Below are positions 30,148 through 60,642 of a stretch of DNA of 64,000 bases, piece by piece. Position 1 is the first letter of the stretch. Each line of letters opens with the position of its first letter. Position numbers and translations under genes: made by a program. Origin of the DNA: an uncultured Gammaproteobacteria bacterium (GTDB lineage: Bacteria > Patescibacteriota > Patescibacteriia > UBA9934); the NCBI GenBank assembly GCA_964452565.1, contig CAYVLY010000001.1, positions 78,638 to 142,637 on the forward strand. The letters run 5' to 3'. Below the pieces are notes generated by a model. It saw nothing but the letters and a program-made list of their open reading frames with translations, ran no database searches and was not told where the DNA came from.

Positions 30148-30268
30148 GTCATCCTGAGCGAGTCGATTCGTCGCCGGCCGTCGCTAAAGCTATGGCCGGT
30201 CCGCCGAAGCTTTATGCGAAGGCGGAAAGGATCCCTGTAAGAGATTTCTCGGCTTCGCTCGGAATGAC
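30148..30268. repeat. GC-rich palindromic repeat element, family GTCATCC..GAGCGAG..GGGATCC..GGATGAC (copy A)
   Basis: Terminal inverted repeats gtcatcctgagcgagtcga / tcggcttcgctcggaatgac; internal GC hairpins; related copies at 32270, 38105, 50290, 53258, 56754, 58560, 60537. Confidence 0.65.
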
Positions 30269-30295
30269 GAAGAATAAATAAAACAATAAAAACAT

Positions 30296-32269
30296 ATGCC
30301 AAAGATTCTAGGAATTGATTTAGGAACTACAAACTCAGCTATGGCTGTGATGGAGGGTGGTTCACCAAAGATCCTTGAGAACAAAGAAGGATCACGCACA
30401 ACACCTTCAATGGTGGCGGTTACAAAGAATAATGAGCGCTTGGCTGGAACACCTGCAAAGCGTCAAGCTGTTACAAACCCAAAAGATACACTCTTTTCGA
30501 TCAAACGACTTATCGGACGAAGATTCAATGATGAAGAGGTTAAGTATGACATGGAGCACATGCCATATGAGATTGTTGCACGTGGAGAAGGTGTGGGTAT
30601 CAAAATGGGTGATAAGGAATACACACCGCAGCAGGTTGGTGCAATGGTTTTGCAAAAGATGAAAGCAGATGCTGAGGAAAAGACTGGTGAGACAATCACA
30701 GAAGCAGTGATCACGGTTCCTGCTTACTTTGATGATGCACAGCGACAAGCTACAAAGGATGCAGGTGAGATTGCAGGGCTTAAGGTCCTCCGAATCATCA
30801 ACGAGCCAACTGCGGCCGCACTCGCTTATGGATTTGATAAAAAGGTTGGTCAGCAAGTTCTGGTGTACGATCTAGGTGGTGGAACTTTTGACGTGTCAGT
30901 GCTCGACGTATCTGAAAATACCGTTGAGGTTCTATCAACCAATGGTGACACTCACCTTGGAGGAGATGACTTTGATAAGGCGATTATCGACTGGATTATC
31001 ATGGAGTTTAAGGCGCAAGAAGGTGTAGATCTTTCTGGAGACCCACTTGCTATGCAACGTGTAAAAGACGCAGCAGAGCGGGCTAAGATTGAGTTATCCA
31101 CAGCAGCACAAACTGAGATCAATCAACCATTCATTACTTCAGGAGCAGAAGGGCCAAAACACTTGGTTATGACTTTGACACGCGCAAAGCTTGAGGAGCT
31201 AATTATGCCGCTTGTTGAAAAGACTCTTGAGCCAGTTAAGAAAGCACTTAACGATGCAAAGCTTCAACCGTCAGACATCGAAGAGATCATCTTGGTTGGA
31301 GGGATGACACGAATGCCAGTGATCGGAAAGAAAGTAGAAGAGTTTTTCAGTAAGAAGCCAAATGCGACTGTAAACCCAGATGAAGTTGTTGCAATGGGTG
31401 CAGCAATCCAGGCTGGTGTTCTTCAAGGTGATGTTAAGGATGTGCTGTTGCTTGATGTGACTCCACTGTCTCTCGGAATCGAAACTATGGGTGGAGTGTT
31501 TACAAAGCTTATCGAGAGAAACACAACAATTCCTACAACCAAGAGTCAAATCTTTTCTACTGCAGCTGATAGTCAGCCTTCTGTTGAAATTAAAGTTTAC
31601 CAAGGTGAGCGTCAGATGGCTGCTGACAACAAGGTTCTTGGACGGTTCATGTTGGACGGAATCCCACCAGCACCACGAGGAGTTCCACAGATCGAAGTTA
31701 GTTTCGATATCGATGCGAACGGAATCCTTAATGTTTCTGCAAAAGATAAGGGAACTGGTAAGGAGCAGAAGATTACCATTCAGGCATCTTCAGGATTGTC
31801 GGACGAAGAGGTTGAAAAGATGAAGCAGGATGCAGAGGCTCATGCTGATGAGGATAAAAAGAAAAAAGAGAGCGTAGAAGTTAAAAATGTTGCAGATACC
31901 ATGGTGTATACTGCAGAGAAGATGCTGATCGATGGTAAGGACAAAATCGACGAGGCTGAAGCAAAGAATGTTCAAGAAAAGATTGACGCTCTTAAAGACG
32001 TTAAGGATAGTGAAGATATTGAAAAGATCAAAGCTGTGTCTGAAGAACTATCAAAGGTTGCTCAGGAAGTTGGAGCAAAGATGTATCAAGCTGAGCAGGC
32101 AGAACAGAACCCAGAAGCCAGTACCCAGAACCCAGCCGAAGGTCACGAGCAAAGTCGAGGGGAAGGCGACGACGTAAAAGACGCGGATTTTGAGGAGGTG
32201 AAAGAGGAAAAGAAGGACGAAGGCGCTGACGCCGCTGATCAAACTGATCAAGGATCGGAAAATAAATAA
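30296..32269 (+). CDS. dnaK: Chaperone DnaK (Hsp70)
   Basis: [18 protein letters not shown], full Hsp70 architecture. Confidence 0.95.
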
Positions 32270-32342
32270 CCCCTCTCGTCCATCCCGACGTGAGGAGGGA
32301 TCCCGGCCGGGCTGACGCATTTATCGCCCGGCCGTCGATCTG
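32270..32342. repeat. GC-rich palindromic repeat element (copy B) with catcccgacgtgaggagggatcc core and 9-bp CGGCCGGGC/GCCCGGCCG hairpin
   Basis: Shares a 23-nt motif with the copy at 38105..38255. Confidence 0.6.
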
Positions 32343-32353
32343 ATTAACCCACC

Positions 32354-32563
32354 ATGCATATGTTTAGTAAGAAAGAAAAACCAAAAAGGAATATATTGCT
32401 TCGGCTTGTAATCGGAGTAGGTTCGTTTGTGATGTGGCTACTTAGCTTTAAGGCCGTTCGATCCTGGATTTGGAAACGAGTTGAGTCAAAAGGTAGAGAA
32501 AAGATAATCGATGCGAAAGCAAAGGTTGTAGAAAAAAGTGAGAAAAAGAGATTTTTAAAGTAG
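32354..32563 (+). CDS. Hypothetical small membrane protein
   Basis: ORF with one TM; between dnaK and dnaJ. Confidence 0.3.
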   Translation: MHMFSKKEKPKRNILLRLVIGVGSFVMWLLSFKAVRSWIWKRVESKGREKIIDAKAKVVEKSEKKRFLK

Positions 32564-32565
32564 TT

Positions 32566-32988
32566 ATGGTCTTAAGTAATGTAAAAAAATTCCTAAAGCC
32601 ACACCGTCTATTGCTTTTATCAATGGCTGTTTTTGCTGTTGCTATATGGCTGGCAATGCATATTTTATTGGATAACCTATGCCTTGTTCCATACTGTAAC
32701 CAATACGATCATTTTTGGCTTGCATGGGTCCTTATCCCAATAATGGTTGTGATAGCCATTTTCTCGATACCAATTTTAATTGCATTTGGAATTTGTCACT
32801 TTCTGTACATGTCTTTTGGTTACCAGGATATGACGATTTGGGCTTGGGTGATGGTGAAAATGTATGATATTGGATTCATGAATGTCAGAGAGATATTATC
32901 CATTTTAATATCGGTATTTGGAGGGGTTATATATGGTGGTATTTTCTATTCGATTGTAAGCATTCCAATAAAAAAGATGCGTAAATAA
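32566..32988 (+). CDS. Hypothetical 4-TM membrane protein
   Basis: ORF, hydrophobic; between dnaK and dnaJ. Confidence 0.4.
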   Translation: MVLSNVKKFLKPHRLLLLSMAVFAVAIWLAMHILLDNLCLVPYCNQYDHFWLAWVLIPIMVVIAIFSIPILIAFGICHFLYMSFGYQDMTIWAWVMVKMYDIGFMNVREILSILISVFGGVIYGGIFYSIVSIPIKKMRK

Positions 32989-33009
32989 TGATTTTGGAAT
33001 GAAGTAGCT

Positions 33010-34065: not shown

Positions 34066-34070
34066 TCAGA

Positions 34071-34127
34071 TCGGGGCATCCTGCCCCGTACCCCTGGCCC
34101 CATTTCTTTGGAGCAGCAAAGAAATGG
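34071..34127 (+). terminator. Two consecutive hairpins after dnaJ: GGGGCA-tcc-TGCCCC and 13-bp CCCCATTTCTTTG-gagcag-CAAAGAAATGGGG
   Basis: Perfect stems. Confidence 0.55.
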
Positions 34128-34586
34128 GGAAAAGAAACTGCTGGCCCATACTGCGTTCGTCCAGGCGTACCCCTTGTCATACAGACGGGCATTTTGAGGA
34201 TCTGGTTTGTATCTATGGATAAACCAGACCGGCAAAATGCTATTCCGTCTTCCTGCCAGGGGACAAGCCTGAACGTACTCGTGGTGGGCCTAAAATGCTA
34301 AGAGCCGGGTCGCGTCAAAATTGGCTGGGGACTCAGTTGAGAATTACAAGAACCGGCATATGCCGGTTCTTGTACATCTTCATTAAAAAAAGGAGCCGCC
34401 GAGGTAAGTCGGCGGCTGTGTGAGTTGTCCAAGACTCACAGAGACGCATGACCCAAGCCTCCCTTCGCTTGAATCATCATGAAGAAGTGGATGGCCCTAG
34501 CTCATCGGTACATCCACAAAAATAATATCAAAAATTGTTGAAAAAGCAAGAGCCGCAGCCTGTGTAGGCTGCGGACTGACGACGGG

Positions 34587-35744: not shown

Positions 35745-35749
35745 AACAT

Positions 35750-35850
35750 ACCTCCCACTTCCCCTGCCTACCGGCAGGCAGGCAAGGGGGAGATAGCCTG
35801 CCGGTCGAAGCTCCGACAGGAGCGAAGTCCGGAGGGGGTTGCCGTTTTTG
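35750..35850. repeat. GC-rich structured element with the gagcgaagtccggagggggttgccg core; shares the 12-mer agggggttgccg with the intragenic dnaX element
   Basis: Hairpins CCCCTGCC..GGCAAGGGGG; ends in a T-run, so terminator-like. Confidence 0.55.
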
Positions 35851-36610: not shown

Positions 36611-36684
36611 CGCTGCTCTCATGCGGCGCTTTCATGCTTTTTTATAACAATAGGCGGTATAAAAGTTTGTTTATCAACCATCTA

Positions 36685-36718
36685 CTGCATACTGCCTACT
36701 TTTGATATAATCAACCCA
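36685..36718 (+). promoter_or_regulatory. Promoter module ctgcatactgcctacttttgaTATAATcaaccca (extended -10 TGATATAAT), ATG 9 nt downstream (leaderless-like); copy 1
   Basis: Near-identical module at 38276..38323. Confidence 0.55.
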
Positions 36719-38104: not shown

Positions 38105-38255
38105 GTACCTAATGGCATTCCGTCTCCCTGGCACCATCCCAACGTTAGGAGGTATCCCAGGTCTTATCGTTTCTAAATTAGATCGAACGGCCGGCCAAAG
38201 AATAATATCAAGCCGGCCGGGATCCCTCGGCATTCGCCTCGGGATGGACGTGCTC
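38105..38255. repeat. GC-rich palindromic repeat element (copy C), composite
   Basis: catcccaacgttaggaggtatcc motif, CGGCCGGC..GCCGGCCG hairpin, ends ..cgggatccctcggcattcgcctcgggatggacg. Confidence 0.6.
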
Positions 38256-38275: not shown

Positions 38276-38323
38276 ACTGCATACTGCCTACTGCATACTG
38301 TATACTTTTGATATAATAAACCC
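38276..38323 (+). promoter_or_regulatory. Promoter module copy 2 with internal tandem duplication (ctgcatactgccta ctgcatactgtata) + cttttgaTATAATaaaccc, ATG 6 nt downstream
   Basis: TATAAT 38312..38317, ATG 38324. Confidence 0.55.
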
Positions 38324-38860
38324 ATGCCTGATGAGGAGGTAAAAGTCGAAAAGCAAACTAGTACGGCCCAAGAGCAAGGGCCTGATTTAGGTTTAGAAAG
38401 AGAGGTGCCAGCAGAAGTTAAAGAAGAGGTTCGTGAAGCTGAAAAAAAACCAGAGGCTAAACCTGAAAAGATTGAGCCAGAAAAGCCTCAGGAAGCTCCA
38501 GAAGTATCAGTTCCAAAAGCTGTTCCTGAAGAGCCAACTCAGGCACCAATAAAGAAAGATGAAATCTTAGTTGATCTAGAGGGTATTCTCGCAGATGATT
38601 TAACTGAAGTTTTTTTGGAGTTACCTGATGACAAGAAACTTGCTTTTAAGAAAAAGGGTGAGGAAGTTGCAATAAGAGTCTATGAGATGATCCACTCCGG
38701 AAAAGTTAAGGTTGGAAAGATTTTAGGTTGGATCCGCGAATGGCTTCGAATGATCCCAAGAGTTAATAAGTTTTTTATTGATCAAGAGGCTAAGATTAAG
38801 GCAGACAAGATTCTCACGTACGCAAGAGATCAACAAAAGCGTCGTCAAGATAAAATATGA
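38324..38860 (+). CDS. Hypothetical protein with acidic Pro/Glu/Lys-rich N-terminus
   Basis: ORF; 4-nt overlap (ATGA) with the next gene. Confidence 0.5.
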   Translation: MPDEEVKVEKQTSTAQEQGPDLGLEREVPAEVKEEVREAEKKPEAKPEKIEPEKPQEAPEVSVPKAVPEEPTQAPIKKDEILVDLEGILADDLTEVFLELPDDKKLAFKKKGEEVAIRVYEMIHSGKVKVGKILGWIREWLRMIPRVNKFFIDQEAKIKADKILTYARDQQKRRQDKI

Positions 38861-41355
38861 TCGAAGAGTTTTTAAACAATCCACTTATGCTGGTGTACCT
38901 GTTGCTAGGGGTTGTTTTGATTTTTGCAATCATTATAGCGGTGCTATTTTTTGTCAGAAAGTATTTAAGAAAGGGACAGATGATGCGTGGAGGCGAGTTC
39001 TCAGGCGTCACAATGATGATTACTGTGCCAAAGTTCAAAAGTGAAGCAGAATCAAAGAGTGATGAAAAGACAGCTGACATTAAGGAAGATATTGCAATAG
39101 CTGAGACATTTTTCGCTGCAATTGGTGGTCTAAAGCCTCAAAAAGGATTTAAGCCATGGCTTTACGGAAGAACAGATGAAATTGCACTTGAAATGGTTGC
39201 ACATGAAAAGGTTATAACGTTTTACATCACAGTTCCTCGCTACATGCAGAACTTTGTTGAGCAGCAACTTCATGCTCAATACAGTGCCGCAGCAATTGAA
39301 CCAGTGAAAGATTACAATATATTTTCACCAAGTGGAACCATTGTTGGTGGTTATTTGGTTTTGAAGCGTGAGAATGCATTACCTATCAAAACGTATACCG
39401 AAATGGAGGGCGATCCGCTTAATGCAATTACAAATGCTCTCTCAAAGGTTCCAGAAGGTGATGGTGTGGCTGTGCAGTACGTTGTTCGATCAGCAAGAGG
39501 AGAATGGCGGTCATTAGGAAAGAAGATCGTCAAGAACATGAAAAAGGGAATGGGCTATGAGGAAGCAAAGAAAGGAGGGGACTCTGGATGGGGAAAGATG
39601 CTAAAGTCTCAGGTATCAAAGACTGATGAGGGTCCAAAAGAGCCAAGGCAACTTTCTGCTACAGAGCAAAAGATGATGGAGGGAATTGAAAAGAAGGCCA
39701 GCAAGGCTGGGCTTGATATAAATGTAAGAATTGTTGCGAGCGCACAAAGCTCTGATGCTGCAACAATGTACTTGAATCAGGTTTTGCAGGCTTACAACCA
39801 GTACAACATTTACGAATACGGAAATTCATTTGAAAAGTCAGTTCCAAGACGTAGTACCTTAGTTCAAGATTTTATTTATCGAAAGTTAAGGAGTAAGTAT
39901 AAGCTCGTTCTTAATACTGAAGAGCTTGCTGGACTTTGGCATCTTCCAATTCCTTCAACTGAAACCCCGAATATCCGTTGGATGCTAGCAAGAACAGCGC
40001 CAGTACCGCCTGAGGTTCCAGATGAAGGTGATTTTAAGATTGGACACAATATATATCGTGGACATAAAACAGATGTTTTCATGAAAAATGAGGATCGTAC
40101 GCGACACATGTACGTCCTTGGTAAAACCGGTACTGGTAAATCTGTATTTTTGCGGTCAATGGCAATTCAGGATATTAAGAATGGAAAAGGTGTTGCTGTG
40201 ATTGATCCACATGGTGATTTAGTTGATGCAATCATGGGCCAGATCCCAAAGGAGCGCATTGATGATGTGATTTACTTTAATCCGTCTGACACGGAGAGGC
40301 CAATGGGTCTTAACATGCTTGAGGCTAAGAGTGAAGCTGATCGCGATTTTGCGGTGCAGGAGATGATCTCAATCTTCTACATGTTGTTCCCACCAGAGAT
40401 GATCGGTCCGATGTTTGAGCACAACATGCGTAACTTTATGCTGACTCTGATGGCTGATCAGGAGAATCCTGGAACAATTGCAGAGATACCGCGAATGATT
40501 TCAGACGAAAAGTTCCAAAAGAAGTGGGTGTCAAAAGTTAAAGATCCAGTCGTTAGATCCTTCTGGGAAGACGAAATGGCAAAGACTTCTGATTATCATA
40601 AGTCTGAGATGATGGGATATCTTGTATCAAAAGTTGGTCGTTTTGTAGAAAACGAGATGATGCGTAACATCATCGGTCAGTCAAAATCAGCATTTAACTT
40701 TCGCGAGATAATGGACGAGGGCAAGATTTTGCTTGTGAACCTTTCGAAAGGTAAAACTGGTGATGTAAACGGAAACCTACTTGGACTAATCATGGTATCG
40801 AAGCTCCAAATGGCAGCGTTTGGCCGAGCAGACATGGCAGAGGAGGATCGAAAAGATTTCTTCTTGTATGTTGATGAGTTCCAAAACTTTATTACGCCTT
40901 CAATCGCGACAATCCTGTCTGAGGCTAGAAAGTATCGATTAAATCTTATAATGGCCCATCAGTACATGGGGCAATTAATAAAAGACGGTAAGACTGAGAC
41001 GCGGGATGCCATTTTAGGTAACGTTGGAACAACGCTTGTATCAAGAATTGGTCCAGAGGATGTTGAGATTTTATCGAAAATATATGAACCGACTCTATCT
41101 GGTTATGATTTGATGAATAATGAGGAGTTTGCATGGAATGCGCGTATCATTGTAGATATGTCACAAACAAAGCCATTTACACTGAAGGCAGAGTGGCCAG
41201 GAAAGCATAATCAAAAGTTAACCGATGCTCTTAAGGAGGTATCTCGACTTACATATGGACGGCCAAAGGATTTGGTTGAGCGTGGAATCGCACTGCGAGC
41301 GGGAATTGGAGCAAAGCGTGAAGTAACAAAGCCTCCGATGCCAACAGGGCGATAG
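38857..41355 (+). CDS. Fused membrane N-domain + VirD4/TraG/TraD-like coupling ATPase (paralog of 16432..18033 + 18035..20125)
   Basis: N-terminal TM; Walker A VLGKTGTGKSV, Walker B YVDEFQNF, MAHQY; N-terminal 350 aa homologous to ORF 16432..18033. Confidence 0.8.
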   Translation: MIEEFLNNPLMLVYLLLGVVLIFAIIIAVLFFVRKYLRKGQMMRGGEFSGVTMMITVPKFKSEAESKSDEKTADIKEDIAIAETFFAAIGGLKPQKGFKPWLYGRTDEIALEMVAHEKVITFYITVPRYMQNFVEQQLHAQYSAAAIEPVKDYNIFSPSGTIVGGYLVLKRENALPIKTYTEMEGDPLNAITNALSKVPEGDGVAVQYVVRSARGEWRSLGKKIVKNMKKGMGYEEAKKGGDSGWGKMLKSQVSKTDEGPKEPRQLSATEQKMMEGIEKKASKAGLDINVRIVASAQSSDAATMYLNQVLQAYNQYNIYEYGNSFEKSVPRRSTLVQDFIYRKLRSKYKLVLNTEELAGLWHLPIPSTETPNIRWMLARTAPVPPEVPDEGDFKIGHNIYRGHKTDVFMKNEDRTRHMYVLGKTGTGKSVFLRSMAIQDIKNGKGVAVIDPHGDLVDAIMGQIPKERIDDVIYFNPSDTERPMGLNMLEAKSEADRDFAVQEMISIFYMLFPPEMIGPMFEHNMRNFMLTLMADQENPGTIAEIPRMISDEKFQKKWVSKVKDPVVRSFWEDEMAKTSDYHKSEMMGYLVSKVGRFVENEMMRNIIGQSKSAFNFREIMDEGKILLVNLSKGKTGDVNGNLLGLIMVSKLQMAAFGRADMAEEDRKDFFLYVDEFQNFITPSIATILSEARKYRLNLIMAHQYMGQLIKDGKTETRDAILGNVGTTLVSRIGPEDVEILSKIYEPTLSGYDLMNNEEFAWNARIIVDMSQTKPFTLKAEWPGKHNQKLTDALKEVSRLTYGRPKDLVERGIALRAGIGAKREVTKPPMPTGR

Positions 41356-42037: not shown

Positions 42038-43531
42038 ATGAGTCAAGCGCTTTATCGAAAATATAGACCATCGCAGTTTAGCGATGTTTTTGGTCAAAAA
42101 CATGTTGTTCAGACCATTCAGAATCAGATCGCTGATGAGAATGTTGCGCACGCTTATCTTTTTGCAGGCCCTCGTGGGATTGGTAAGACAACGATTGCAC
42201 GGTTGTTGGCTAAGACTGTTAATTGCGAAGATCGTAAAGGTAAGCCAGAGGCCTGTGGGAAGTGTAAGCATTGTGAGGCGTTTAATAAGAACAATGCGCT
42301 GGATATTGTTGAAATAGATGCTGCAAGTAATACGGGTGTGGACAATGTTCGTGAGAATATTATCGAAGCCATAAGGTTTGCGCCAACAACCGGATCCTTC
42401 AAGGTTTTTATTATTGATGAGGTTCACATGCTTTCAGCAAGTGCTTTTAATGCGCTTTTGAAAACTCTGGAAGAGCCGCCTGAATATGGAATATTTGTTT
42501 TGGCTACAACTGAGATTCACAAGATTCCACAAACAATTATTTCAAGGTGTCAGCGTTTTGATCTTCATAGATTGACTGAGGATGAGATTGTTAAGCGTTT
42601 GAATTCAATTCTAAAGGCTGAGAAAATTAAGGCCGATGATTCAGTGCTAAAGACTGTCGCGAAGCTCTCAGAGGGCTGCCTGCGTGATGCTGAGAGTCTT
42701 TTGAGCCAGATCATGGCACTTGGTGAGAAGGAGATAACTGAGGACCTAGCTTCGATCGTCTTACCGCGTACAAACACTCAAACTGTTGAGAATATACTGC
42801 AGTTCTGCGAGGTGTCAGATGCTTCTGCTGCAATTAGTGAATTGTTGGAATTTATCGAGCAAGGCGGGTCTGTAAAAAGATTGAATGACGATCTCATCGA
42901 AGAGTGTAGATTAAAAATGATGGAAAACTTAGGTCAAGACATGTCAAAGGTCGCATGGTTTAGATCAGCCCTTGAGGAATTCTTAAAGGCACGGACAACA
43001 TCGGCACCTGAGACGATCCCACATTTATCGCTTGAGCTGGCAATTGTAGAAATTTGTGGGGCGGGCAAGTCAAATCTCCCCCTTCCCAAGGGGGAGGAAG
43101 AGGGGGTTGCCGATGATAAAATCAAACAAGATTCGACCCCCCTCCTTGCGAAGGAGGGGTTGGGGGAGGTCACTAATCAAACCACGGAGGAAAAGAATAC
43201 GGCCTCCAGTGCCGTATTTAACATTGAGGACCTTCGATCAAAGTGGAAGCGTTGCTGCGATGAAGTTTCAAAAACAAACATTGCATTGCCTTTAGCTTTG
43301 AAAGACGCCCAGCTTATCGAAATAAATGATCAAGGATTAGTGATGGGTTTTGAGCGGCAATTTCATTTTGATTCAGTAAGTCAGCGTAAGAATCTCGACG
43401 TGGTCTCTGACGCGATCGAGCGAGTGATTGGGGCTAAGCTCGTCATTTTTACAAAGTTTATAGACGCCAAGGAGGACGAGGTGCCAATCCAGAATCTAGC
43501 TGCCGCCTTTGGTGGATCTGTAGTCGATTAG
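42038..43531 (+). CDS. dnaX: DNA polymerase III subunit gamma/tau
   Basis: AAA+ Walker A GPRGIGKTT, zinc-module CEDRKGKPEACGKCKHC, sensor motifs; GC-rich palindromic insertion inside the linker at 43073..43172. Confidence 0.9.
   Translation: MSQALYRKYRPSQFSDVFGQKHVVQTIQNQIADENVAHAYLFAGPRGIGKTTIARLLAKTVNCEDRKGKPEACGKCKHCEAFNKNNALDIVEIDAASNTGVDNVRENIIEAIRFAPTTGSFKVFIIDEVHMLSASAFNALLKTLEEPPEYGIFVLATTEIHKIPQTIISRCQRFDLHRLTEDEIVKRLNSILKAEKIKADDSVLKTVAKLSEGCLRDAESLLSQIMALGEKEITEDLASIVLPRTNTQTVENILQFCEVSDASAAISELLEFIEQGGSVKRLNDDLIEECRLKMMENLGQDMSKVAWFRSALEEFLKARTTSAPETIPHLSLELAIVEICGAGKSNLPLPKGEEEGVADDKIKQDSTPLLAKEGLGEVTNQTTEEKNTASSAVFNIEDLRSKWKRCCDEVSKTNIALPLALKDAQLIEINDQGLVMGFERQFHFDSVSQRKNLDVVSDAIERVIGAKLVIFTKFIDAKEDEVPIQNLAAAFGGSVVD
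43073..43172 (+). repeat. Intragenic in-frame GC-rich hairpin pair (CTCCCCCTT-ccc-AAGGGGGAG; CCCCTCCTT-gcg-AAGGAGGGG) within dnaX, related to the intergenic repeat family
   Basis: Two 9-bp perfect stems; shares agggggttgccg with 35843..35856. Confidence 0.6.
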
Positions 43532-44248: not shown

Positions 44249-44533
44249 ATGAAGGGTATGGCCAATTGGTGGTGCTTCAAGCTGCTCGTGAGCCTCTGGA
44301 TCCGAGTATGCGCCACCTCCCGCTCTGACGAGCTGGCAACAGATGATGCTGCATTGGTCGAAGATACCAATGAGGCATCTGAGCTACTCCCACCCCTGCT
44401 GGAGCTTGTGTACGACAGCGGAGCCCCTCAGACACGAGGACTGCGTCTTCCAGAGACGCGCGATGATCTCATTCGTCGCCGATCCCATCTCGAGCTTAAG
44501 TGGAGTCGATCCGGGCGTCGCCAGGCCAGCTAG
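44249..44533 (+). CDS. Hypothetical small protein (GC-rich, next to tRNA-Gln)
   Basis: Good promoter and RBS; terminator-like hairpin CAGCGACCCA-tctc-TGGGTCGCTG at 44547..44570. Confidence 0.35.
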   Translation: MKGMANWWCFKLLVSLWIRVCATSRSDELATDDAALVEDTNEASELLPPLLELVYDSGAPQTRGLRLPETRDDLIRRRSHLELKWSRSGRRQAS

Positions 44534-44689
44534 AGTCCACCATCCGTTCGTATCAGCGACCCATCTCTGGGTCGCTGAAGTGCTTTTCAAAAACCACTAA
44601 TTTTTGCAAAATATTTATCAACAACTATTGACAAAAGGCCATTTTTATGCTAAAGTTATTGTGTTAACTTAATCTTAAAATATATTTAT

Positions 44690-50289: not shown

Positions 50290-50368
50290 GTCATTCCTGC
50301 GTAGGCAGGAATCCATCAATTATCGAATTCGATAGTCGATGGATCCCCGATCGTAGTCGGGGATGACA
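50290..50368. repeat. Structured repeat element (copy D): GTCATTCC-hairpin-GGAATCCATC..TCGATAGTCGATGGATCC-hairpin-GGATGAC
   Basis: ~80% identical to 53258..53338, with a compensatory stem change (a-c to g-c) supporting a conserved secondary structure. Confidence 0.7.
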
Positions 50369-50383
50369 AATTTTGAAGTACAT

Positions 50384-51541
50384 ATGGGACTTTTTTCAAA
50401 AAAAGAAGAATCAGCTGCCGGGATGATTGGAGTTGATATTGGAGCTGGTGGAATCAAGATGGTAGAACTCTTGCCACAAAGGGGAAGGGTGAAGCTTTCC
50501 ACCTATGGTCATGCTGAGCGTAAGTCACATACTGACGGTGCGTTGATTGATCAACCGCAAAAAGCAGCAAAGCTTATCCAAGAGATCATTAAAAAATCTG
50601 GGATGAAATCAGCTCAAGTGAATGCGGCGCTTCCATCACAGGCCGTGTTTCATGCGATTGTGACTATTGCCCAACCGAAAAGTAAAAAAGAAGATCTAAA
50701 GCCGCTTATCGAAGCTCAGGTAAAAAAGCTTTTACCTCGACCGCTTGATGAGATGATTTTGGACTCAACAGTTATTGATAAGCATCTTTTGCCAAAAGAT
50801 GAGCCACAGCCGAAAAAGAAACCAGAAAAAAAGGGTGAGAAAAAACAGGAAGGCAAAAAAACTGAGGAAATTCTGAAACGAAAAGAGCGAAAGCATATTC
50901 GGGTATTGATTTCAGGTGCGCCAAAAGATTTAGTTCAAAAGTACGTTGATATCTTCAAGCTTGCAAAGTTGCAACTCTCATCGCTTGAGACTGAGTCGTT
51001 TGCATTAATCCGATCGCTGATTGGAAAAGACATGTCACGAATCATGATTGTTGATATTGGGTATGAGCGTACAAATATTAATATTGTGAATCATGGTATT
51101 CCGTTCTTGCACCGTTCAATCAAAGCTGGTGGTATCAATGTTACAAATGCGATTTCAAAGCAGATGGGCGTATCCCCAGCGCAGGCTGAGCAAGTAAAGT
51201 TTGATCTTGCAATTGCGGCTCAAAAAGAACAAAAGATGCCAAATGTTGTGCGTGAGGCAGTAATGCCAATCTTGCATGAGGTCAAGTATGCACTTGAGCT
51301 TTACGATCAACAGGACTTTCACGAGCACTCAACAGTTGAAAAGATCATCTTAACAGGAGGATCTGCACACCTGCCATTCCTAGACCCATTTTTAACTGAA
51401 GCACTAAATATAAACGTATATTTGGGTAATCCATGGGCTCGTATTGCCTCACCAGAAGGGTCTCAAGTGGTTTTGAGTGAGATAGGACCACGAATGGCAG
51501 TTGCAGCAGGACTAGCAATGAAAATGCTTAAAGACGCATAG
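50384..51541 (+). CDS. pilM: Type IV pilus assembly protein PilM (actin-like ATPase)
   Basis: GVDIGAGGIKMVEL N-terminus, actin-fold motifs; Lys/Glu-rich insertion; start set at ATG 50384 because ATG 50363 lies inside the repeat. Confidence 0.75.
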   Translation: MGLFSKKEESAAGMIGVDIGAGGIKMVELLPQRGRVKLSTYGHAERKSHTDGALIDQPQKAAKLIQEIIKKSGMKSAQVNAALPSQAVFHAIVTIAQPKSKKEDLKPLIEAQVKKLLPRPLDEMILDSTVIDKHLLPKDEPQPKKKPEKKGEKKQEGKKTEEILKRKERKHIRVLISGAPKDLVQKYVDIFKLAKLQLSSLETESFALIRSLIGKDMSRIMIVDIGYERTNINIVNHGIPFLHRSIKAGGINVTNAISKQMGVSPAQAEQVKFDLAIAAQKEQKMPNVVREAVMPILHEVKYALELYDQQDFHEHSTVEKIILTGGSAHLPFLDPFLTEALNINVYLGNPWARIASPEGSQVVLSEIGPRMAVAAGLAMKMLKDA

Positions 51542-53257: not shown

Positions 53258-53338
53258 GTCATTCCTGGCCCAGACCAGGAATCCATCGTTTATCGAACTC
53301 GATAGTCGATGGATCCCGGCTCTACGGCCGGGATGACA
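53258..53338. repeat. Structured repeat element (copy E), direct repeat of copy D, flanking the pil operon
   Basis: Same architecture and orientation as 50290..50368. Confidence 0.7.
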
Positions 53339-53352
53339 GTAAAATGATAATT

Positions 53353-53382
53353 AAAAGACCCGCTCGATCGAGCGGGTCTTTT
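53353..53382. terminator. Perfect 30-bp palindrome AAAAGACCCGCTCGA|TCGAGCGGGTCTTTT, bidirectional terminator
   Basis: 15-bp arms flanked by A/T runs between pilD (+) and 53391..54017 (-). Confidence 0.7.
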
Positions 53383-53390
53383 AATTATGC

Positions 53391-54017
53391 CTACCAACCA
53401 ATCTCTTCAGCGGCAGTGCTTGCGGCTTCGTGCGCCTGCGCTTGTGCTGTAGACTTTAGCGCATCTGATTCGATTTCATCGATTTCATCAAGTATCTCCC
53501 TTGCTCCTTGTTCCCATGCAACTGCATCAGATTTCCATAATGGGTCTACATTGGTTTCGCGTTTTGATTCATCTTTGATCTGATCGACTGCACCTTCAGC
53601 CTTTTCTAGATTATGCGCAATAGCCGCTGTATCACGCAAAACTATTTCCATCTTTTGCTTTGTATTTCCAAGAATATTGTTCATAGCATCTACAAGACCT
53701 TCTGATGGTATATTTGCGTTAGCGATTATCTGCTTTGCATCCTCAAGTGCCTGTTTCATACCTTCAAAGCCTTTGTATGTTTTACCGTCTCGAGATGAGC
53801 TTAGATCAATTGTTGTGAGTAGCCCATCGATCTTTGATGAAAGATCATCAAATCCTTGCTGGGCTCTACGGACTTCGAGCTCAGCATCTTTGTTGTGTTT
53901 AGAAATATCCTCTGCAGATTGCTCCGATGTCTCTCTTATCGATTCGGTTCTAATCTCACCAGCTTCTTGTGAGTCAACTGGTCGTACTTCAGCATCTGCT
54001 TTTGATCCATCACGCAT
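53391..54017 (-). CDS. Hypothetical charged coiled-coil protein
   Basis: ORF; the antisense Ser/Cys-rich ORF 53677..54366 looks spurious. Confidence 0.45.
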   Translation of the reverse strand: MRDGSKADAEVRPVDSQEAGEIRTESIRETSEQSAEDISKHNKDAELEVRRAQQGFDDLSSKIDGLLTTIDLSSSRDGKTYKGFEGMKQALEDAKQIIANANIPSEGLVDAMNNILGNTKQKMEIVLRDTAAIAHNLEKAEGAVDQIKDESKRETNVDPLWKSDAVAWEQGAREILDEIDEIESDALKSTAQAQAHEAASTAAEEIGW

Positions 54018-54086
54018 ATATTGTATATTACAAGCTTATTGTAGCAGGTCGGATGTTATTGGCTACTTTTATCCACAGCAAGGTCC

Positions 54087-54146
54087 AACCTCCGGGAGGT
54101 TGGACCTTGGATTAGAACGAACAACCCCGCGTCACGATGACGCGGG
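54087..54146. terminator. Two strong hairpins: AAGGTCCAACCT-ccggg-AGGTTGGACCTT (12 bp) and CCCCGCGTCA-cgat-TGACGCGGGG (10 bp)
   Basis: Downstream (minus strand) of gene 54172..54447. Confidence 0.55.
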
Positions 54147-54171
54147 GGTGAGTCCAGGAGACGAGGGTGGC

Positions 54172-54447
54172 CTACATCCTGGAGATGTTGCCCTTGCGGG
54201 TGTCGGTGCGGTAGTAGCCCCCGATATTGTCGCCGTCTTTGTTGTGGCCTTCGTAGTTCCAGCTTTCGCCGGATCCGTCCTCGCGCTGGACCGAGTCGAT
54301 GCCGACCTTGATCTGACTACTGCCATCCGGTGTCGTGACCTCGAAGGTCACGAAGCGGCGGCTTGATGCGGTGTTGTCGAAGAGGCCGAGCATCAGGTCC
54401 CATTTGCTGGGGCCGTTGACGATCTTGTGCGTGGGGTTGGAGGACAT
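54172..54447 (-). CDS. Hypothetical small protein (GC-rich mini-island)
   Basis: RBS AAAGGGGTGA 3 nt before ATG on the minus strand; GC3-rich codons. Confidence 0.45.
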   Translation of the reverse strand: MSSNPTHKIVNGPSKWDLMLGLFDNTASSRRFVTFEVTTPDGSSQIKVGIDSVQREDGSGESWNYEGHNKDGDNIGGYYRTDTRKGNISRM

Positions 54448-54663
54448 ACGTCACCCCTTTCATCGTATACATGTGCAGATGAGCGGATGCATCTACAAAA
54501 CATCGTCACCCTTTCGGGTCACCTAGGTATACACCCAGGAATTTGGTTAACAAATATAGCATTAAAAAGCAGTTTTGTCAAGGCTAGCAGCTTATCCACA
54601 GAGCGGGATCATTCAGTAAAACCAGCTAAATCCGCACTACAGTAAAAGCGTCAAATTTGATAA

Positions 54664-56724
<2,061 letters not shown>

Positions 56725-56753
56725 CGGTAGCGAATATAGGTATTCCAGAAGCC

Positions 56754-56800
56754 GTCATCCCGAGCGACCGAGCGTTTACGCGAGGAGTCGAGGGATCTTT
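56754..56800. repeat. Partial GC-rich repeat element (copy H): cgtcatcccgagcgaccgagcg..gagtcgagggatcttttt
   Basis: Shares catcccgagcga and gtcgagggatct with 60537..60642. Confidence 0.5.
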
Positions 56801-56821
56801 TTGAAGAAGTAATAACAATAT

Positions 56822-57115
56822 ATGCCGAATATTGAATTTGATATTGATCATGTGGCCCAGCTAGCAATGCTCGACCTTAATAACGAGGAGCGAGCTATGT
56901 TTGAAGAGCAGCTACCATCGATTTTAGCTTATGTAAGTAAGCTTGGAGAAGTTGACACAGAAGGTGTAGACTCTTCAGCTTATATTTCAGATCTGCATAA
57001 TGTGATGCGTGATGATAAAGCGAAGAAATCCTCAAATAAGCTACGGTCAGATCTTGTTAAGTCATTTCCAAAGGAGTCTGGTGATGCGCTGGAGGTTCCT
57101 GCGATTTTTGAATAA
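56822..57115 (+). CDS. gatC: Asp-tRNA(Asn)/Glu-tRNA(Gln) amidotransferase subunit C
   Basis: GatC family pattern; precedes gatA. Confidence 0.8.
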   Translation: MPNIEFDIDHVAQLAMLDLNNEERAMFEEQLPSILAYVSKLGEVDTEGVDSSAYISDLHNVMRDDKAKKSSNKLRSDLVKSFPKESGDALEVPAIFE

Positions 57116-57120
57116 GGCTT

Positions 57121-58545
57121 ATGGAATATAGAACAGCAACTGACATTCGAAAGGCTATTGAAGACAAGAAGATTACAGCAGTTGAAGTGCTTGAGTATTA
57201 TCTTTCGATCATATCAAAAGAAGATGAAGAGATTGGAGCATTTCTTGAGGTGTTTGAAAAGTATGCAAAAAAGCAAGCCAAGAAGATAGACAAGATGGTC
57301 GCGGAGGGCAAATCACTTCCACGTCTAGCTGGAGTTCCTATCGCGATCAAAGACAATATGCTCTATAAGGGGCACGTAGCCTCGGCAGGATCAAAGATGC
57401 TTGAGAAGCATGTGTCGACTTACAGCGCGACTGCTGTGGATCGGTTGATAAAAGCAGGTGCAGTTATTGTTGGTCGAACAAACATGGATGAGTTTGCAAT
57501 GGGAACTTCAACTGAAACAAGTTTTTGGAAATTAACAAAGAACCCATCAGACACCTCAAAGGTTCCAGGGGGCTCATCCGGAGGTTCGGCAGCAGCAGTT
57601 GCAGCTGGAATGGTTCCAGTTGCACTAGGGTCAGACACTGGTGGGTCAATACGCCAACCATCGGCAATGTGTGGTGTTGTTGGTATGAAGCCAACATATG
57701 GACGTGTTTCTCGATACGGACTTATAGCGTTTGCTTCAAGCTTTGACCAAATTGGACCGATTGCAACTACTGCAGATGATGCCGCGCTTATTCTTGAAGT
57801 GATCGAGGGGCCAGATAAACATGATGCGACTACCTTTGAGTTGCAAGAGACCACGGCGTCCGAGCTCATCGAAAAGAGCTTCAAGGGTATGACATTTGGT
57901 GTTCCAAAAGAATACTTTCTTGATGAGATGGATCCGCGCATGACTAAAGTCATCAGAGATTCGATCAACAAGATCGAAGAAGCTGGCGGTGAGATTAAAG
58001 AAGTAAGTCTGCCATTGACTGAATTCGCACTTCCAACTTATTACATAATCCAACCTGCGGAAGCTAGCTCTAACCTTGGGCGATTTGATGGTATGCGTTA
58101 TGGAACACGCGCACAGTCAGATAGTTTGAATGAAAGCTACTTAATGGCGCGTGGAACCGGCTTTGGAAAAGAGGTTAAGCGTAGAATCATGATTGGAACC
58201 TACGTATTATCAGCAGGTTATTACGACGCATACTACAAAAAAGCGCTTCAGGTACGTCAGATGATTACAAAGGACTTTGAGAGAGTGTTTGAGGATGTTG
58301 ATGTAATTGTCTGTCCGACATCACCAGGAGTCGCTTGGGGACTTGGGGATAAGTTTGATGATCCAATAGCAATGTATCTTGCTGATATATTTACTGTTTC
58401 AGCTAACATTGCAGGAATCCCAGGGATTTCAATTCCTTGTGGAGAGGTTGACGGACTCCCAGTTGGATTACAGTTTTTGGCAGGTCCACAACATGATGGT
58501 AAAATTTTGCGTGCAGCAGCAGCCTATCAGGCGCTGATAAAATAA
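57121..58545 (+). CDS. gatA: Glutamyl-tRNA(Gln) amidotransferase subunit A
   Basis: Amidase signature GGSSGGSAAAVAAG, Ser-cisSer-Lys triad. Confidence 0.9.
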   Translation: MEYRTATDIRKAIEDKKITAVEVLEYYLSIISKEDEEIGAFLEVFEKYAKKQAKKIDKMVAEGKSLPRLAGVPIAIKDNMLYKGHVASAGSKMLEKHVSTYSATAVDRLIKAGAVIVGRTNMDEFAMGTSTETSFWKLTKNPSDTSKVPGGSSGGSAAAVAAGMVPVALGSDTGGSIRQPSAMCGVVGMKPTYGRVSRYGLIAFASSFDQIGPIATTADDAALILEVIEGPDKHDATTFELQETTASELIEKSFKGMTFGVPKEYFLDEMDPRMTKVIRDSINKIEEAGGEIKEVSLPLTEFALPTYYIIQPAEASSNLGRFDGMRYGTRAQSDSLNESYLMARGTGFGKEVKRRIMIGTYVLSAGYYDAYYKKALQVRQMITKDFERVFEDVDVIVCPTSPGVAWGLGDKFDDPIAMYLADIFTVSANIAGIPGISIPCGEVDGLPVGLQFLAGPQHDGKILRAAAAYQALIK

Positions 58546-58559
58546 GCACATAGCAGCTT

Positions 58560-58638
58560 GTCATTCTGAGCAGAGCGAAGAATCTACTTGAGTCGGTCGA
58601 GCTCGATTAATAGACCCTTCACTGCGTTCAGGATGACA
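58560..58638. repeat. GC-rich palindromic repeat element (copy G): gtcattctgagcagagcgaag..cttcactgcgttcaggatgac
   Basis: Terminal inverted repeats; located after gatA. Confidence 0.6.
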
Positions 58639-58671
58639 AGTTAGGAGGGAAATTAACAAATAAATAAAACT

Positions 58672-59382
58672 ATGAGTGAGAAATCAAAAGGATTTTTTGA
58701 TGCAAACCCCAAGATGCTATTTATCTTTGGATTAGTTTGTGGAATTGCAGTTACATTAGTAATTGGAGGTGCATGGCCAAACCTTGATTCAGCTGGGTTA
58801 GATGGCGAAGAAGTAGTTGTGGTAGATGATGTTGGCGGCGATGCTGGAGAAGAGGAGCCTGCAGTACTTGCAGCAGTGACAGAGGATGATCACATTCGTG
58901 GAGATATTGAAACAGCAAAGGTTGTAATTGTAGAGTACTCAGATTATGAATGTTCATACTGTGCACGGCATCATCCAACGCTAGTTGAGTTAATGGATAC
59001 TTATGGGGATGATGTTGCATGGGTTTATCGACATTATCCACTATCATTCCACGCAGAAGCAGTACCAGCAGCACTTGCTGCCGAGTGTGCTTCAGAGCAG
59101 GATATGTTCTGGGAATTCACAGACGAGATGTATGATAACCAGACATCGCTTGGTGAAGACCTTTACTTCGAGGTGGCCGAGACATTGGGGCTTGATATCG
59201 ATGAGTTCACCACTTGTTATGAGGAAGAGCGTTACGTCGATGACATACAAGCAGATATGGAGAGTGGAACTGCAGCAGGTGTTGCAGGAACCCCAGGTAA
59301 CTTCGTTAACGGAGTTGCAGTATCAGGTGCGCAACCAGCATCAGTATTTGAAGGTTTGATTGATCAGATCTTGGCTGAGTAA
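58672..59382 (+). CDS. Membrane-anchored DsbA-like thiol:disulfide oxidoreductase
   Basis: N-terminal TM, thioredoxin fold with CSYC active site. Confidence 0.75.
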   Translation: MSEKSKGFFDANPKMLFIFGLVCGIAVTLVIGGAWPNLDSAGLDGEEVVVVDDVGGDAGEEEPAVLAAVTEDDHIRGDIETAKVVIVEYSDYECSYCARHHPTLVELMDTYGDDVAWVYRHYPLSFHAEAVPAALAAECASEQDMFWEFTDEMYDNQTSLGEDLYFEVAETLGLDIDEFTTCYEEERYVDDIQADMESGTAAGVAGTPGNFVNGVAVSGAQPASVFEGLIDQILAE

Positions 59383-59405
59383 TTAGATCGAAATTTGAAA
59401 AACCG

Positions 59406-59437
59406 TCCGCAAGGGCGGTTTTTTGTTATAATATTCT
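59406..59437 (+). terminator. Hairpin AAAAACCGTC-cgcaag-GGCGGTTTTT + TG
   Basis: Stem with A-U extension and T-run. Confidence 0.5.
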
Positions 59438-59440
59438 TGT

Positions 59441-60511
59441 ATGATTAAAGTAACAAAGTTCGTCATTCTAGTAATTGCAGCGCTGGTCATTATCTTTGGC
59501 GCTTATTTTGTATACTCACCAGAGCAGGAGGTGCCGCGGGGGACTGTGGATGAATATCTTGAAGTTACGATCTACGATGAAGAGAAGGCCTATGAGGGTA
59601 CGACTTTTCTGACTGATAGTAACTCAAAGCGTGTTGTTGAGATAAACATGTTAGGTGAAGTGCTCTGGGAGTTCAGCCCACTTGATGAATGGGATGGATT
59701 TGATCAAATGAGAATGGTTGAGGCAGAACTTCTGCCTAACGATAATATTCTTTTGCTGCTAGGGAATTACGGTCTTTATGAGATCGACCGCGAGTACAAT
59801 ATTATTTGGTCTTACGAGGATTCAAAGGCGAGTCATGATGCTGACCGTCTAGAAAATGGAAATACGCTCTATGTTTTTGGTATGGATGACACTCACAACG
59901 ATGCCCAAGTAAAGGAAGTTGATCAAGACGGAAACTTAGTCTGGGAATGGTATGCAGAGGATACATTTGGTGAGAATGAGAATCTAAGTTCTATTGAGGA
60001 AGAGGGCTGGACGCATATCAATGCAGTTCAACGGTTCGAAAATGGAAATACAATGGTCAGTTTAAGAAACTTTCAGATGACCGCGATTATCAATCCAAAT
60101 GGTGAGATCGTGAAGCAATTTAATTGGAAGTCACTAGGGTATGGAAATCTTCCAGAGCCTCATGAGCCAGTTGTATACGAGAATGAAGGCACGATTATGG
60201 TCTGTTTACAAAATGATTCAACGTATGAGGTGTTGGAAGTGGATCTTGAAACAGGTGAGGAGGTTTGGAGCTATGATCATCCAACGCTTAGAACCGCGAG
60301 AGACTGTGACTTGCTACCGAATGGGAATGTTCTAATAACAGCTGTAAATATGATCGAAGATACCCAGGCGGATAATGATTACAGCAACGACATTTCAACA
60401 ATAATCGAAGTTACCCCAGATGGTGAGGTTGTTTGGCAGCTTGTGCACAGGCTGATAAAGGATGGAGTTTCACCTGGCTGGTTCTTCAAGGCCGAGAGAG
60501 TTGATTACTAG
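59441..60511 (+). CDS. Membrane-anchored beta-propeller repeat protein (arylsulfotransferase/PQQ-like repeats)
   Basis: N-terminal TM; repeated ..NGN(T/V)L..D..(L/V)VWE(W/F).. blades. Confidence 0.55.
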   Translation: MIKVTKFVILVIAALVIIFGAYFVYSPEQEVPRGTVDEYLEVTIYDEEKAYEGTTFLTDSNSKRVVEINMLGEVLWEFSPLDEWDGFDQMRMVEAELLPNDNILLLLGNYGLYEIDREYNIIWSYEDSKASHDADRLENGNTLYVFGMDDTHNDAQVKEVDQDGNLVWEWYAEDTFGENENLSSIEEEGWTHINAVQRFENGNTMVSLRNFQMTAIINPNGEIVKQFNWKSLGYGNLPEPHEPVVYENEGTIMVCLQNDSTYEVLEVDLETGEEVWSYDHPTLRTARDCDLLPNGNVLITAVNMIEDTQADNDYSNDISTIIEVTPDGEVVWQLVHRLIKDGVSPGWFFKAERVDY

Positions 60512-60536
60512 AAATAAAAAAACACCCAGCTTTTTT

Positions 60537-60642
60537 CCATCCCGAGCGAGTCCATTGGGCGAGTCGAGGGATCTCTTAGGTATCAGTTTCGTGAGATCCT
60601 TCGACTCCGTTCGCTATTACTCACTACGCTCAGGATGGACGG
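60537..60642. repeat. GC-rich palindromic repeat element (copy F): ccatcccgagcgagtcc..gctcaggatggacgg, nested in flanking aaacacccag/cgggtgttt inverted repeat
   Basis: Terminal inverted repeats plus outer complementarity suggesting insertion into a pre-existing terminator stem. Confidence 0.6.

Follow-up and report, generated by a model that had tools for sequence, protein, structure and literature searches.

Hairpin repeats probably of the Ssn-related type in an Uhrbacteria-like Patescibacteria genome

What kind of repeat occupies the spacers between the chaperone, pilus, ligase and Gat genes of an Uhrbacteria-like Patescibacteria genome, and which protein might recognize it? The question is raised by a stretch of 64,000 nucleotides from contig CAYVLY010000001.1 (assembly GCA_964452565.1, positions 78,638 to 142,637 of the forward strand), which is called here the window. 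The window has a GC content of 43.6%, nearly all of its genes are on the + strand, and its GC skew is positive over the entire length. By its GrpE homologs it belongs to the Patescibacteria, with a Candidatus Uhrbacteria metagenome-assembled genome as best named relative (75% identity). In this window a dispersed family of GC-rich palindromic elements, similar to repetitive extragenic palindromes (REP) or miniature inverted-repeat transposable elements (MITEs), had been predicted from the sequence. We find that the eight main elements, named A to H, are built from one type of oriented hairpin module. Head and tail of this module are those of the Neisseria Transformation Sequence (NTS) and of the broader class of Ssn-related motifs (SRM), the targets of the Ssn nucleases. 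We think it likely that the elements are DNA hairpin repeats of this class, present mostly as inverted pairs without a gene between them.

The hairpin module and its likeness to Ssn-related motifs

All eight main elements share one module. Read from the outer ends inward it has the form GTC(C)-ATYCY, followed by a variable hairpin or loop of 4 to ~70 nt and by RGRAT-C. As a unit of ~24-45 nt the module thus consists of a head (T)GTC(C), a stem which starts with AT, the variable interior and an invariant C directly 3′ of the stem. In the stem arms (ATYCY and RGRAT) the AT start is constant and the following three pairs covary. The stems in the window are ATTCC/GGAAT, ATCCC/GGGAT, ATTCT/AGAAT and ATCCT/AGGAT, related genomes add ATCTC/GAGAT, ATTTC/GAAAT and ACCCC/GGGGT, and all of these seven distinct 5-bp stems are complementary. 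Of the 16 modules which we count below, about 10 have an interior that is framed by GA on both sides and holds a short GC stem with a tri- or tetraloop (GA-[stem and loop]-GA, with for example GC-GAA-GC in the middle).

A strict regular expression for the module found 12 instances in the window compared with a mean of 0.25 and a maximum of two in 100 first-order Markov simulations of the window. The predicted dispersed family of hairpin repeats is therefore real. When one mismatch is tolerated, three more modules are obtained in addition to background noise, the right modules of elements A and G (A-R, G-R) and the left module of H (H-L); the heads of such near matches are TTCC or ACC. One further degenerate module, C-L, was spotted by eye. 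In total the window contains 16 modules, 12 strict and four near-match or degenerate ones, which corresponds to a density of ~1 per 4 kb. Fourteen of them are intergenic, though intergenic DNA makes up only 10.7% of the window, and the remaining two are read in frame in the N-terminus of grpE. The elements are also clustered: among spacers of 50 nt or more, 8 of 21 are occupied between 29.5 and 61 kb vs none of 15 between 1 and 29.5 kb (hypergeometric estimate, p ~0.007). The short cores that had been proposed as common to the copies fared differently. The 12-mer CATYCYGAGCGA has four exact occurrences and one with a single mismatch, every one of them inside elements (~0.03 exact occurrences expected by our own calculation), whereas GGGATCC by itself is weakly enriched in the window (10 vs 4.6 expected) and the enrichment of GAGCGAAGTCC is insignificant (2 vs 0.8 expected).

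The module is not confined to the window. Apart from the copies in related genomes and in other Patescibacteria, which are described below, viral contigs were matched on the head-plus-loop string GTCATYCYGAGCGAAG, with at least 137 matches. Among the 137 matches listed, 74 have a stem that is closed by the exactly complementary pentamer with the C after it, and all four Y/R combinations are represented. The module is therefore widespread well outside this lineage. The 3′ C was imposed by the regular expression on the 12 strict modules and is met there by selection; it is also found beyond the regular expression in the near-match modules, in the modules of relatives which we read by eye and in the 74 closed viral matches.

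A full-text literature search with canonical module strings returned nothing relevant. We compared the module with the NTS, CGTCATTCCCGCGMAVGCGGGAATCYRG, which encompasses the dRS3 repeat and for which SRM is the broader class (Chenal et al., Nat Commun 2025, PMC11893778). The nuclease SsnA is a 94-aa GIY-YIG protein, which binds the motif solely as single-stranded DNA and cuts a few nt upstream of it (PMC11893778). Binding by Ssn depends most on the C that directly follows the palindrome, and cleavage most on the three nt before the palindrome, a conserved GTC within HGTCWY (PMC11893778). The ssn genes encode small single-domain GIY-YIG proteins (cd10448) and are typically flanked by the motif; the genomes that have over 300 SRMs include Rickettsia (PMC11893778). 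The invariant GTC head and the 3′ C of the module are thus the positions found critical for cleavage and binding in that study. The left module of element D (D-L) agrees with the NTS at 23 of 28 positions; among the five mismatches, two make up a compensatory pair.

Modules also flank genes of the GIY-YIG family. A search with an approximate consensus of GIY-YIG proteins as query retrieved PF01541 (GIY-YIG) proteins of 94-144 aa, mostly 94-110 aa, with identities of up to 84%, and several of these are labelled Pacebacteria, Staskawiczbacteria, Wildermuthbacteria or Patescibacteria. The genomes labelled Staskawiczbacteria, Pacebacteria and Wildermuthbacteria encode single-domain GIY-YIG proteins of 96-99 aa. 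In three of three genomes examined the gene is bracketed by modules with their heads outward. A (+) module precedes the start codon by a few nt, and a (-) module lies at the stop codon or just beyond it, with an overlap in loci L129-L132. Three flanking modules from loci L127 and L129 were scored, and 25-27 of the 28 NTS positions match. The Pacebacteria locus L129 carries at least ~35 distinct modules in 18 kb (45 regular expression matches, some nested), including GTCATTCTGAGCGAAGCGAAGAATC, and mixes NTS-like modules with the GAGCGAAGCGA type, which is present in the window. The two-module architecture of most elements corresponds to an SRM-ssn-SRM cassette minus the nuclease gene, and hence the elements look like miniature non-autonomous derivatives. 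From their common head and tail and their co-occurrence with NTS-like modules the GA-framed modules may be Ssn substrates as well. A Patescibacteria paper mentions a horizontally transferred GIY-YIG gene and no repeats.

Several observations weigh against an assignment to the NTS/SRM class. The 64-kb window has no ssn or GIY-YIG gene as judged by regular expression, tblastn, a custom Ssn hidden Markov model and six-frame open reading frames (ORFs). By regular expression, tblastn and the custom model, ssn was likewise not found in ~36 kb of a sister Uhrbacteria metagenome-assembled genome (MAG; loci L124, L139 and L141) and in loci L123 and L143-L146. Moreover, the modules which directly flank ssn in loci of the candidate phyla radiation (CPR) are NTS-like, that is of the D/E type, and not of the GA...GA type seen in A, F, G and H. 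The CPR GIY-YIG proteins gave weak generic GIY-YIG matches in NCBIfam and PDB and no assignment to cd10448. The exact dRS3 pattern ATTCCC-N8-GGGAAT is absent from the window, where the best match is D-L with two mutually compensating mismatches. The published SRM string, HGTCWYN(0-2)YYVSBRHN(0-5)WNVSBRGN(0-2)RNCYNB, matches only one of the 16 modules (D-R, the right module of D); it has two matches in the window, one of them spurious, vs 0.18 expected. This string was built by hand from 29 genomes of four phyla and allows a loop of at most 5 nt (PMC11893778). It is a search heuristic and not a biochemical definition, and it demands GC-rich stems in addition to the short loop. Finally, the Ssn study leaves open how the repeats spread (PMC11893778).

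Over all loci the ssn search matched only in the three loci selected for ssn and at one YhbQ-like GIY-YIG gene in locus L142 (16586-16950), a relative with 75% identity in LigA. The latter gene has no SRM flanks and is inserted in a tRNA-Ser gene, with the tRNA 5′ half duplicated over 35 nt. The tRNA-Ser gene of the window (61699-61786) is uninterrupted.

We suggest that the repeats could act in the following steps. The module would fold when the DNA is single-stranded, as in incoming transforming DNA or in intermediates of replication and repair. An Ssn-family GIY-YIG endonuclease specific for single-stranded DNA might then bind the folded module and nick a few nt 5′ of the GTC head in this organism too. 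Such nicking could modulate recombination and integration of repeat-bearing DNA and possibly drive the spread of the repeats. Copies would accumulate where they are tolerated, in intergenic spacers, in a terminator loop and in disordered protein linkers such as the N-terminus of grpE.

Elements in the window and modules in genes

The eight main elements were recovered where they had been predicted and with the neighboring genes that had been named, of which the REC-like ORF is weak. By Pfam these neighbors are GrpE, Hsp70, CysS, RNase H, PilM, the weak REC-like ORF, an A24 prepilin peptidase (pilD), LigA and GatA. The elements and the modules within genes are listed with their strands and, where available, with the z value of single-strand DNA folding:

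A, 30148-30268: modules A-L at 30148-30233 (+) and A-R at 30243-30268 (-); grpE-dnaK spacer; A-L has a long insert with two GC hairpins; z = -3.2.
B, 32278-32335 (+): 3′ of dnaK; one module at 32278-32302, GTCCATCCCGACGTGAGGAGGGATC, followed by the hairpin CCGGCCGGGC; z = -4.4.
C, 38133-38249: modules C-L at 38133-38156 (+), degenerate, and C-R at 38221-38249 (-), GTCCATCCCGAGGCGAATGCCGAGGGATC; 3′ of cysS.
D, 50290-50367: modules D-L at 50290-50313 (+) and D-R at 50342-50367 (-); spacer between the RNase H gene and pilM; central spacer palindromic; z = -5.8.
E, 53258-53337: modules E-L at 53258-53283 (+) and E-R at 53312-53337 (-); 3′ of pilD, same orientation as D; z = -7.1.
F, 56754-56797 (+): ligA-gatC spacer; one module with a 28-nt insert; z = +1.0.
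G, 58560-58637: modules G-L at 58560-58584 (+), GTCATTCTGAGCAGAGCGAAGAATC, and G-R at 58613-58637 (-); 3′ of gatA; z = -2.0.
H, 60535-60640: modules H-L at 60535-60573 (+) and H-R at 60595-60640 (-); spacer between convergent genes; z = -4.4.
grpE module 1, 29642-29668 (-): strict match GTCATTCTGAGGCGCAGCCGAAGAATC, translated in frame as ..DSSAAPQND..; head-to-head with the module at 29679-29703.
grpE module 2, 29679-29703 (+): strict match GTCATCCTGAACGGAGTGAAGGATC, translated as ..CHPERSEGS...
Degenerate module, 20006-20032 (-): GTCTTTCTGAGGCCTAGTCGAAGAATC, within an ORF for a TrwB-like ATPase, at its C-terminal tail; reading frame as in the grpE copy.

Inverted pairs of modules, with the heads outward and a short non-coding spacer in the middle, make up six elements (A, C, D, E, G and H), which fold into long hairpins; B and F are single modules. 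The terminal inverted repeats that had been ascribed to most of the copies are indeed present in most elements (in D, E and G as TGTCAT...ATGACA), with the single modules B and F lacking them. Elements measure 78-121 nt and are without coding capacity. In single-strand DNA folding, eight of nine regions have z values between -2.0 and -7.1, and only F is an exception; its GA-framed interior is not rewarded by the energy model. F is preceded by a 35-nt 5′ extension (~56719-56753), which is conserved in L139 as well. The loop GAGCAGAGCGA of G recurs in one module of L124 whose stem differs, and H occupies the loop of a terminator-like stem formed by AAAAAAACACCC and GGGTGTTTTGTTT.

Elements D and E bracket the pilus operon with pilM to pilD between them. 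They have the same orientation and are 84% identical over 63 nt, which is close to the predicted ~80%. The compensatory change that had been noticed between the two is borne out, since the module stems covary with substitutions TGC/GCA vs TGG/CCA and CCGA/TCGG vs CGGC/GCCG. In an alignment of four copies of the D/E type, D and E together with two from the sister genome, 95% of the cells are paired and four compensatory pairs are seen, all of them in the module stems. The longest ORF of pilM (50363-50386 region) opens at an ATG which belongs to the head of D-R, GGGGATGAC. The true start of pilM is likely the ATG at 50384, and the repeats may thus mislead gene callers by offering an apparently spurious start codon.

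In the original prediction all copies sat at gene 3′ ends, and the two clear modules inside grpE were overlooked. As a pair they fold with z = -3.6. GrpE is conserved at its start, MKK, and in its core, CxxC-EYL-GWKRALADYEN, and the modules lie between these two parts. The start MKK directly follows the hrcA stop codon in all three related genomes, and since there is no alternative in-frame start downstream, the modules are read in frame as ..DSSAAPQNDTSTCHPERSEGS... The GrpE ortholog of locus L123 (79% identical) has both modules. In the ortholog of L124 (75%) a single module is found, which has the loop GAACGGAGTGA as in the window, the opposite orientation and the stem ATCTC/GAGAT. More distant GrpE proteins have a short N-terminus and no module. 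The modules add translated peptides such as CHPERSEGS to genuine proteins. The degenerate copy at 20006-20032 is part of a direct repeat with 29628-29668 (83% identical). The window has two paralogous genes for TrwB/TraG-like coupling-protein ATPases (17993-20125 and 38857-41355) with stretches of ~70% identity (18809-19052 vs 40777-41032).

The repeats break short-read assemblies. In the Logan contigs of the source sample the breaks fall inside D, E and F: contig L002 starts at exactly 50290 (D), contigs L001 and L002 end at 53331 within E, and contig L147/L148 starts within F.

Turnover between relatives and other explanations

We then compared the sites with those of related genomes. Locus L124, from a Candidatus Uhrbacteria MAG, is syntenic with the window over 16.4-38.6 kb. 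The site of A, the grpE-dnaK spacer, is empty in L123 (12 nt); in L124 it is occupied by another element of two modules, whose heads are of the CCATCC type. At the position of B both L123 and L124 bear instead repeats of another family, called Y below, and extra genes. The site of C 3′ of cysS is also occupied by two modules in L124, with the stems ATTTC/GAAAT and ATCTC/GAGAT vs ATCCC/GGGAT in the window. Two LigA relatives from metagenomes, L142 and L143 (LigA 75% identical), have empty sites for F and G, and the terminator orthologous to that around H is uninterrupted in L142. In L144 (LigA 64%) inspection revealed no module at the sites of D, E, F and G; its spacer at the D site is an atypical GC-rich stretch, and the module regular expression gave only AT-rich spurious matches in L144 and L145. 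An 18-mer common to D and E led to two loci of the sister Uhrbacteria MAG, L139 and L141, where elements of the D/E type are present at non-orthologous positions; one of these elements has its left stem altered to ACCCC/GGGGT. L139 carries a copy of the F type, too. From the empty or altered orthologous sites and the non-orthologous copies we conclude that the family is dispersed, is quickly gained and lost and extends beyond the window. The comparison of filled with empty sites gave no unambiguous target-site duplication; the flanks are AT-rich and ambiguous.

How do other explanations account for these elements? A bolder variant of the Ssn reading, which we regard as a long shot, is that the hairpins have multiplied to a density of roughly one per 4 kb in a genome which lacks an ssn gene of its own or that they work with a divergent nuclease recognizing the GA-framed subclass. 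The hairpins could then serve as self-marks or cut sites on single-stranded DNA imported by the type IV pilus machinery, which D and E bracket, and thereby control DNA uptake and recombination in a presumed DNA scavenger, with copies being tolerated in essential genes (grpE) as translated peptides.

The generic REP/MITE label is fair as far as structure is concerned, because the elements are non-coding inverted pairs of modules which differ in presence and absence between relatives; the conserved GTCAT...ATC head and tail point to the more specific NTS/SRM reading. REP and REPIN elements are hairpins mobilized by a RAYT protein, a relative of the IS200/IS605 transposase TnpA, and the inverted pairs would correspond to REPINs. 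REPs typically carry a 5′ GTAG or GTGG tetranucleotide beside the palindrome. The long hairpins formed by the inverted pairs, the conserved 5′ head with a variable palindrome behind it and the intergenic, clustered position of the elements would fit such an origin, and the parallel with REP/BIME-RAYT systems is drawn in the Ssn paper itself (PMC11893778). The head here, however, is GTC with an AT-stem and a 3′ C and not GTAG or GTGG. Moreover, a Pfam scan of 40 window ORFs detected no transposase, RAYT, Y1 transposase or GIY-YIG protein, and the gene which is flanked by modules in three Patescibacteria genomes encodes a GIY-YIG protein and not a RAYT. Thus, a REP/RAYT origin is in our view unlikely.

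We consider it similarly improbable that the elements act primarily at the level of RNA, as 3′ untranslated hairpins which stabilize, attenuate or terminate transcripts. The predicted hairpins are stable, and every intergenic copy follows a + strand gene, which says little as nearly all genes of the window are on this strand. F, alone among the elements, is followed by TTTTT. Since merely 27 nt separate A from the dnaK start, A must be co-transcribed within hrcA-grpE-dnaK, and an exapted effect on the RNA may exist there. A promoter and terminator scan, however, flags none of the elements. It flags only a separate perfect terminator palindrome at 53347-53388 after E, and H sits within the loop of another canonical terminator hairpin, so that the proposed terminator role finds no backing. 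The orthologous spacers of relatives lack the elements or have different ones, and a conserved cis-regulatory role is hence not required. Copies occur in frame in grpE and in both orientations. In an Rfam search only tRNAs pass the gathering threshold, and no element-specific match was obtained at E<=1. The head and tail, which are conserved in sequence and lie outside the helix, indicate recognition by a protein, and Nm SsnA does not bind RNA (PMC11893778).

Classical MITEs, that is deletion derivatives of insertion sequences with a DDE transposase which are mobilized via the terminal inverted repeats TGTCAT...ATGACA, are a still weaker candidate and very improbable. Size, terminal inverted repeats, lack of coding capacity and the presence/absence differences among relatives would be compatible with MITEs. 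Against them stand the lack of a clear target-site duplication, the hairpin form of each inverted repeat, with a stem that covaries, the occurrence of single modules (B and F) and the negative result of the transposase scan mentioned above.

A chance likeness of GC-rich intergenic hairpins, for which one could invoke the individually insignificant short cores, has a negligible probability and is refuted by the excess of strict modules and by the stem closure among the viral matches listed, the same module with exact stem complementarity being present in relatives, other CPR genomes and viral contigs.

Other repeats of the window and comparison with known systems

Further repeats and features were noticed in the window. 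Three stretches which had been counted as related copies are not copies of the module, since 481-510 and 24181-24210 belong to a repeat X and 35750-35850 to a family Y. X, GTCCTTCCGAAGCCCGMAGGGCGAAGGAGG, has two copies at 480-509 and 24180-24209, which are 97% identical. Like the module it has a GTCC head, a pyrimidine arm, a GAA-framed GC mini-hairpin and a purine arm; it is without the AT start of the stem and without the 3′ C. Y is a GC-rich palindrome, CCCCTCCTT-loop-AAGGAGGGG, followed by GGGGGTTGCCG. Besides 35750-35850 its copies in the window are 43076-43112 and 43136-43172, which are in frame in the dnaX ORF, in the part that connects the ATPase lid with the DnaX_C domain. Y copies also occur at different loci in relatives, in L123 at ~5410-5450, in L124 at 12640-12740 and 16471-16510, in L139 at ~6014-6050 and in L141 at ~3793-3828.

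Perfect palindromes centred on TCGATCGA or CGATCG and flanked by A/T runs recur as apparent bidirectional terminators. They are found at 53347-53388 in the window, at 5290-5330, 13356-13392 and other positions in L124, where some are identical duplicates, and at ~9895-9930 in L144. Next to the palindrome of the window begins a block (53391-54450) which is absent from L144, where pilD adjoins ligA. The block contains a 91-aa ORF (54172-54447, - strand) with promoter-like and terminator-like sites of its own. A conserved promoter-like box CTACTGCATACTG...TTTTGATATAAT lies at 36682-36718 upstream of cysS and at 38288-38324 upstream of the gene after C, as well as at 20231-20276 in L124.

In the stretch 24023-24154 of the window, tRNA-Glu is followed by a perfect hairpin of 18 bp and then by an inverted copy of 16 nt of its T-arm (24067-24082 vs 24139-24154), which may be the remnant of an integration or rearrangement site; in L124 the orientation of tRNA-Glu is opposite. 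GC-rich islands (0.55-0.62) at 1000-3000, 10300-12900, 44250-44560 and 54115-54450 consist mostly of ORFs without a Pfam match. The left part of the window, which is rich in GC and poor in ORFs, has a 60-nt direct repeat (1229-1288 and 2197-2256, 85% identical) with the hairpin AAACCCCGCGCCGCTGGTGCGGGGTT and then a TTGACA-like box. Coding repeats include 18-nt acidic (D/E-rich) units at 8238-8399 in the ORF 7369-10263 and an internal tandem duplication of 75 nt (62930-63079) in an ORF for a dCache/HAMP sensor.

If the link to Ssn is true, a recently described system of single-stranded DNA nucleases and repeats would extend into the Patescibacteria, a subclass of GA-framed hairpins would be defined, and short candidate substrates for new site-specific nucleases of single-stranded DNA would be at hand. 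As the published SRM string misses the GA-framed subclass, the abundance of SRMs would then probably be underestimated. The repeats are dense and of fast turnover in a streamlined genome, and they lie near chaperone, pilus, ligase and Gat genes. Do they shape recombination or DNA uptake in these episymbionts?

The elements resemble several known systems. With REP, BIME and REPIN elements they have in common a head with an imperfect palindrome, the arrangement in inverted pairs, intergenic clustering and a likely recognition at the level of single-stranded DNA; they differ from REP-RAYT systems in the head motif and in the associated enzyme, which is of the GIY-YIG type rather than of the HUH Y1 family. 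Rickettsia palindromic elements (RPE) are palindromic repeats that are inserted in frame into coding genes and are translated. By this description the in-frame translated palindromic copies of the window are alike, yet here the intragenic copies are limited to the grpE pair and the degenerate one in the tail of the TrwB-like protein. The Neisseria dRS3 repeats and Neisseria intergenic mosaic elements (NIME) occur in hundreds of copies and are associated with variable loci. Their 20-bp palindrome of the ATTCCC-N8-GGGAAT type and their inverted repeats flanking short intergenic repeat units are similar to the elements described here, whereas the stem sequences of the window modules vary more than those of dRS3.

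With NTS and SRM the modules share the (C/T)GTCAT head, the palindrome running from AT to AT and the C immediately 3′ of it. Both are oriented multicopy hairpins clustered around genes, and the clustering of the window modules resembles the clustered distribution of NTS (PMC11893778). Inverted copies flank a gene for a GIY-YIG protein of ~95 aa, in our case in three Patescibacteria genomes other than that of the window. Unlike NTS and SRM, most modules of the window have long GA...GA-framed interiors and fail the published SRM string, most copies are inverted pairs without a gene, and grpE contains two in its reading frame. The host, which is Uhrbacteria-like, belongs to the Patescibacteria, a phylum not mentioned in the text of the Ssn study (PMC11893778). 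The kind of repeat to which the elements probably belong has been known as NTS/SRM since 2025, with older roots in dRS3 and NIME; less ordinary are the host phylum, the density, the GA-framed subclass, the in-frame copies in grpE and the bracketing of the pilus operon.

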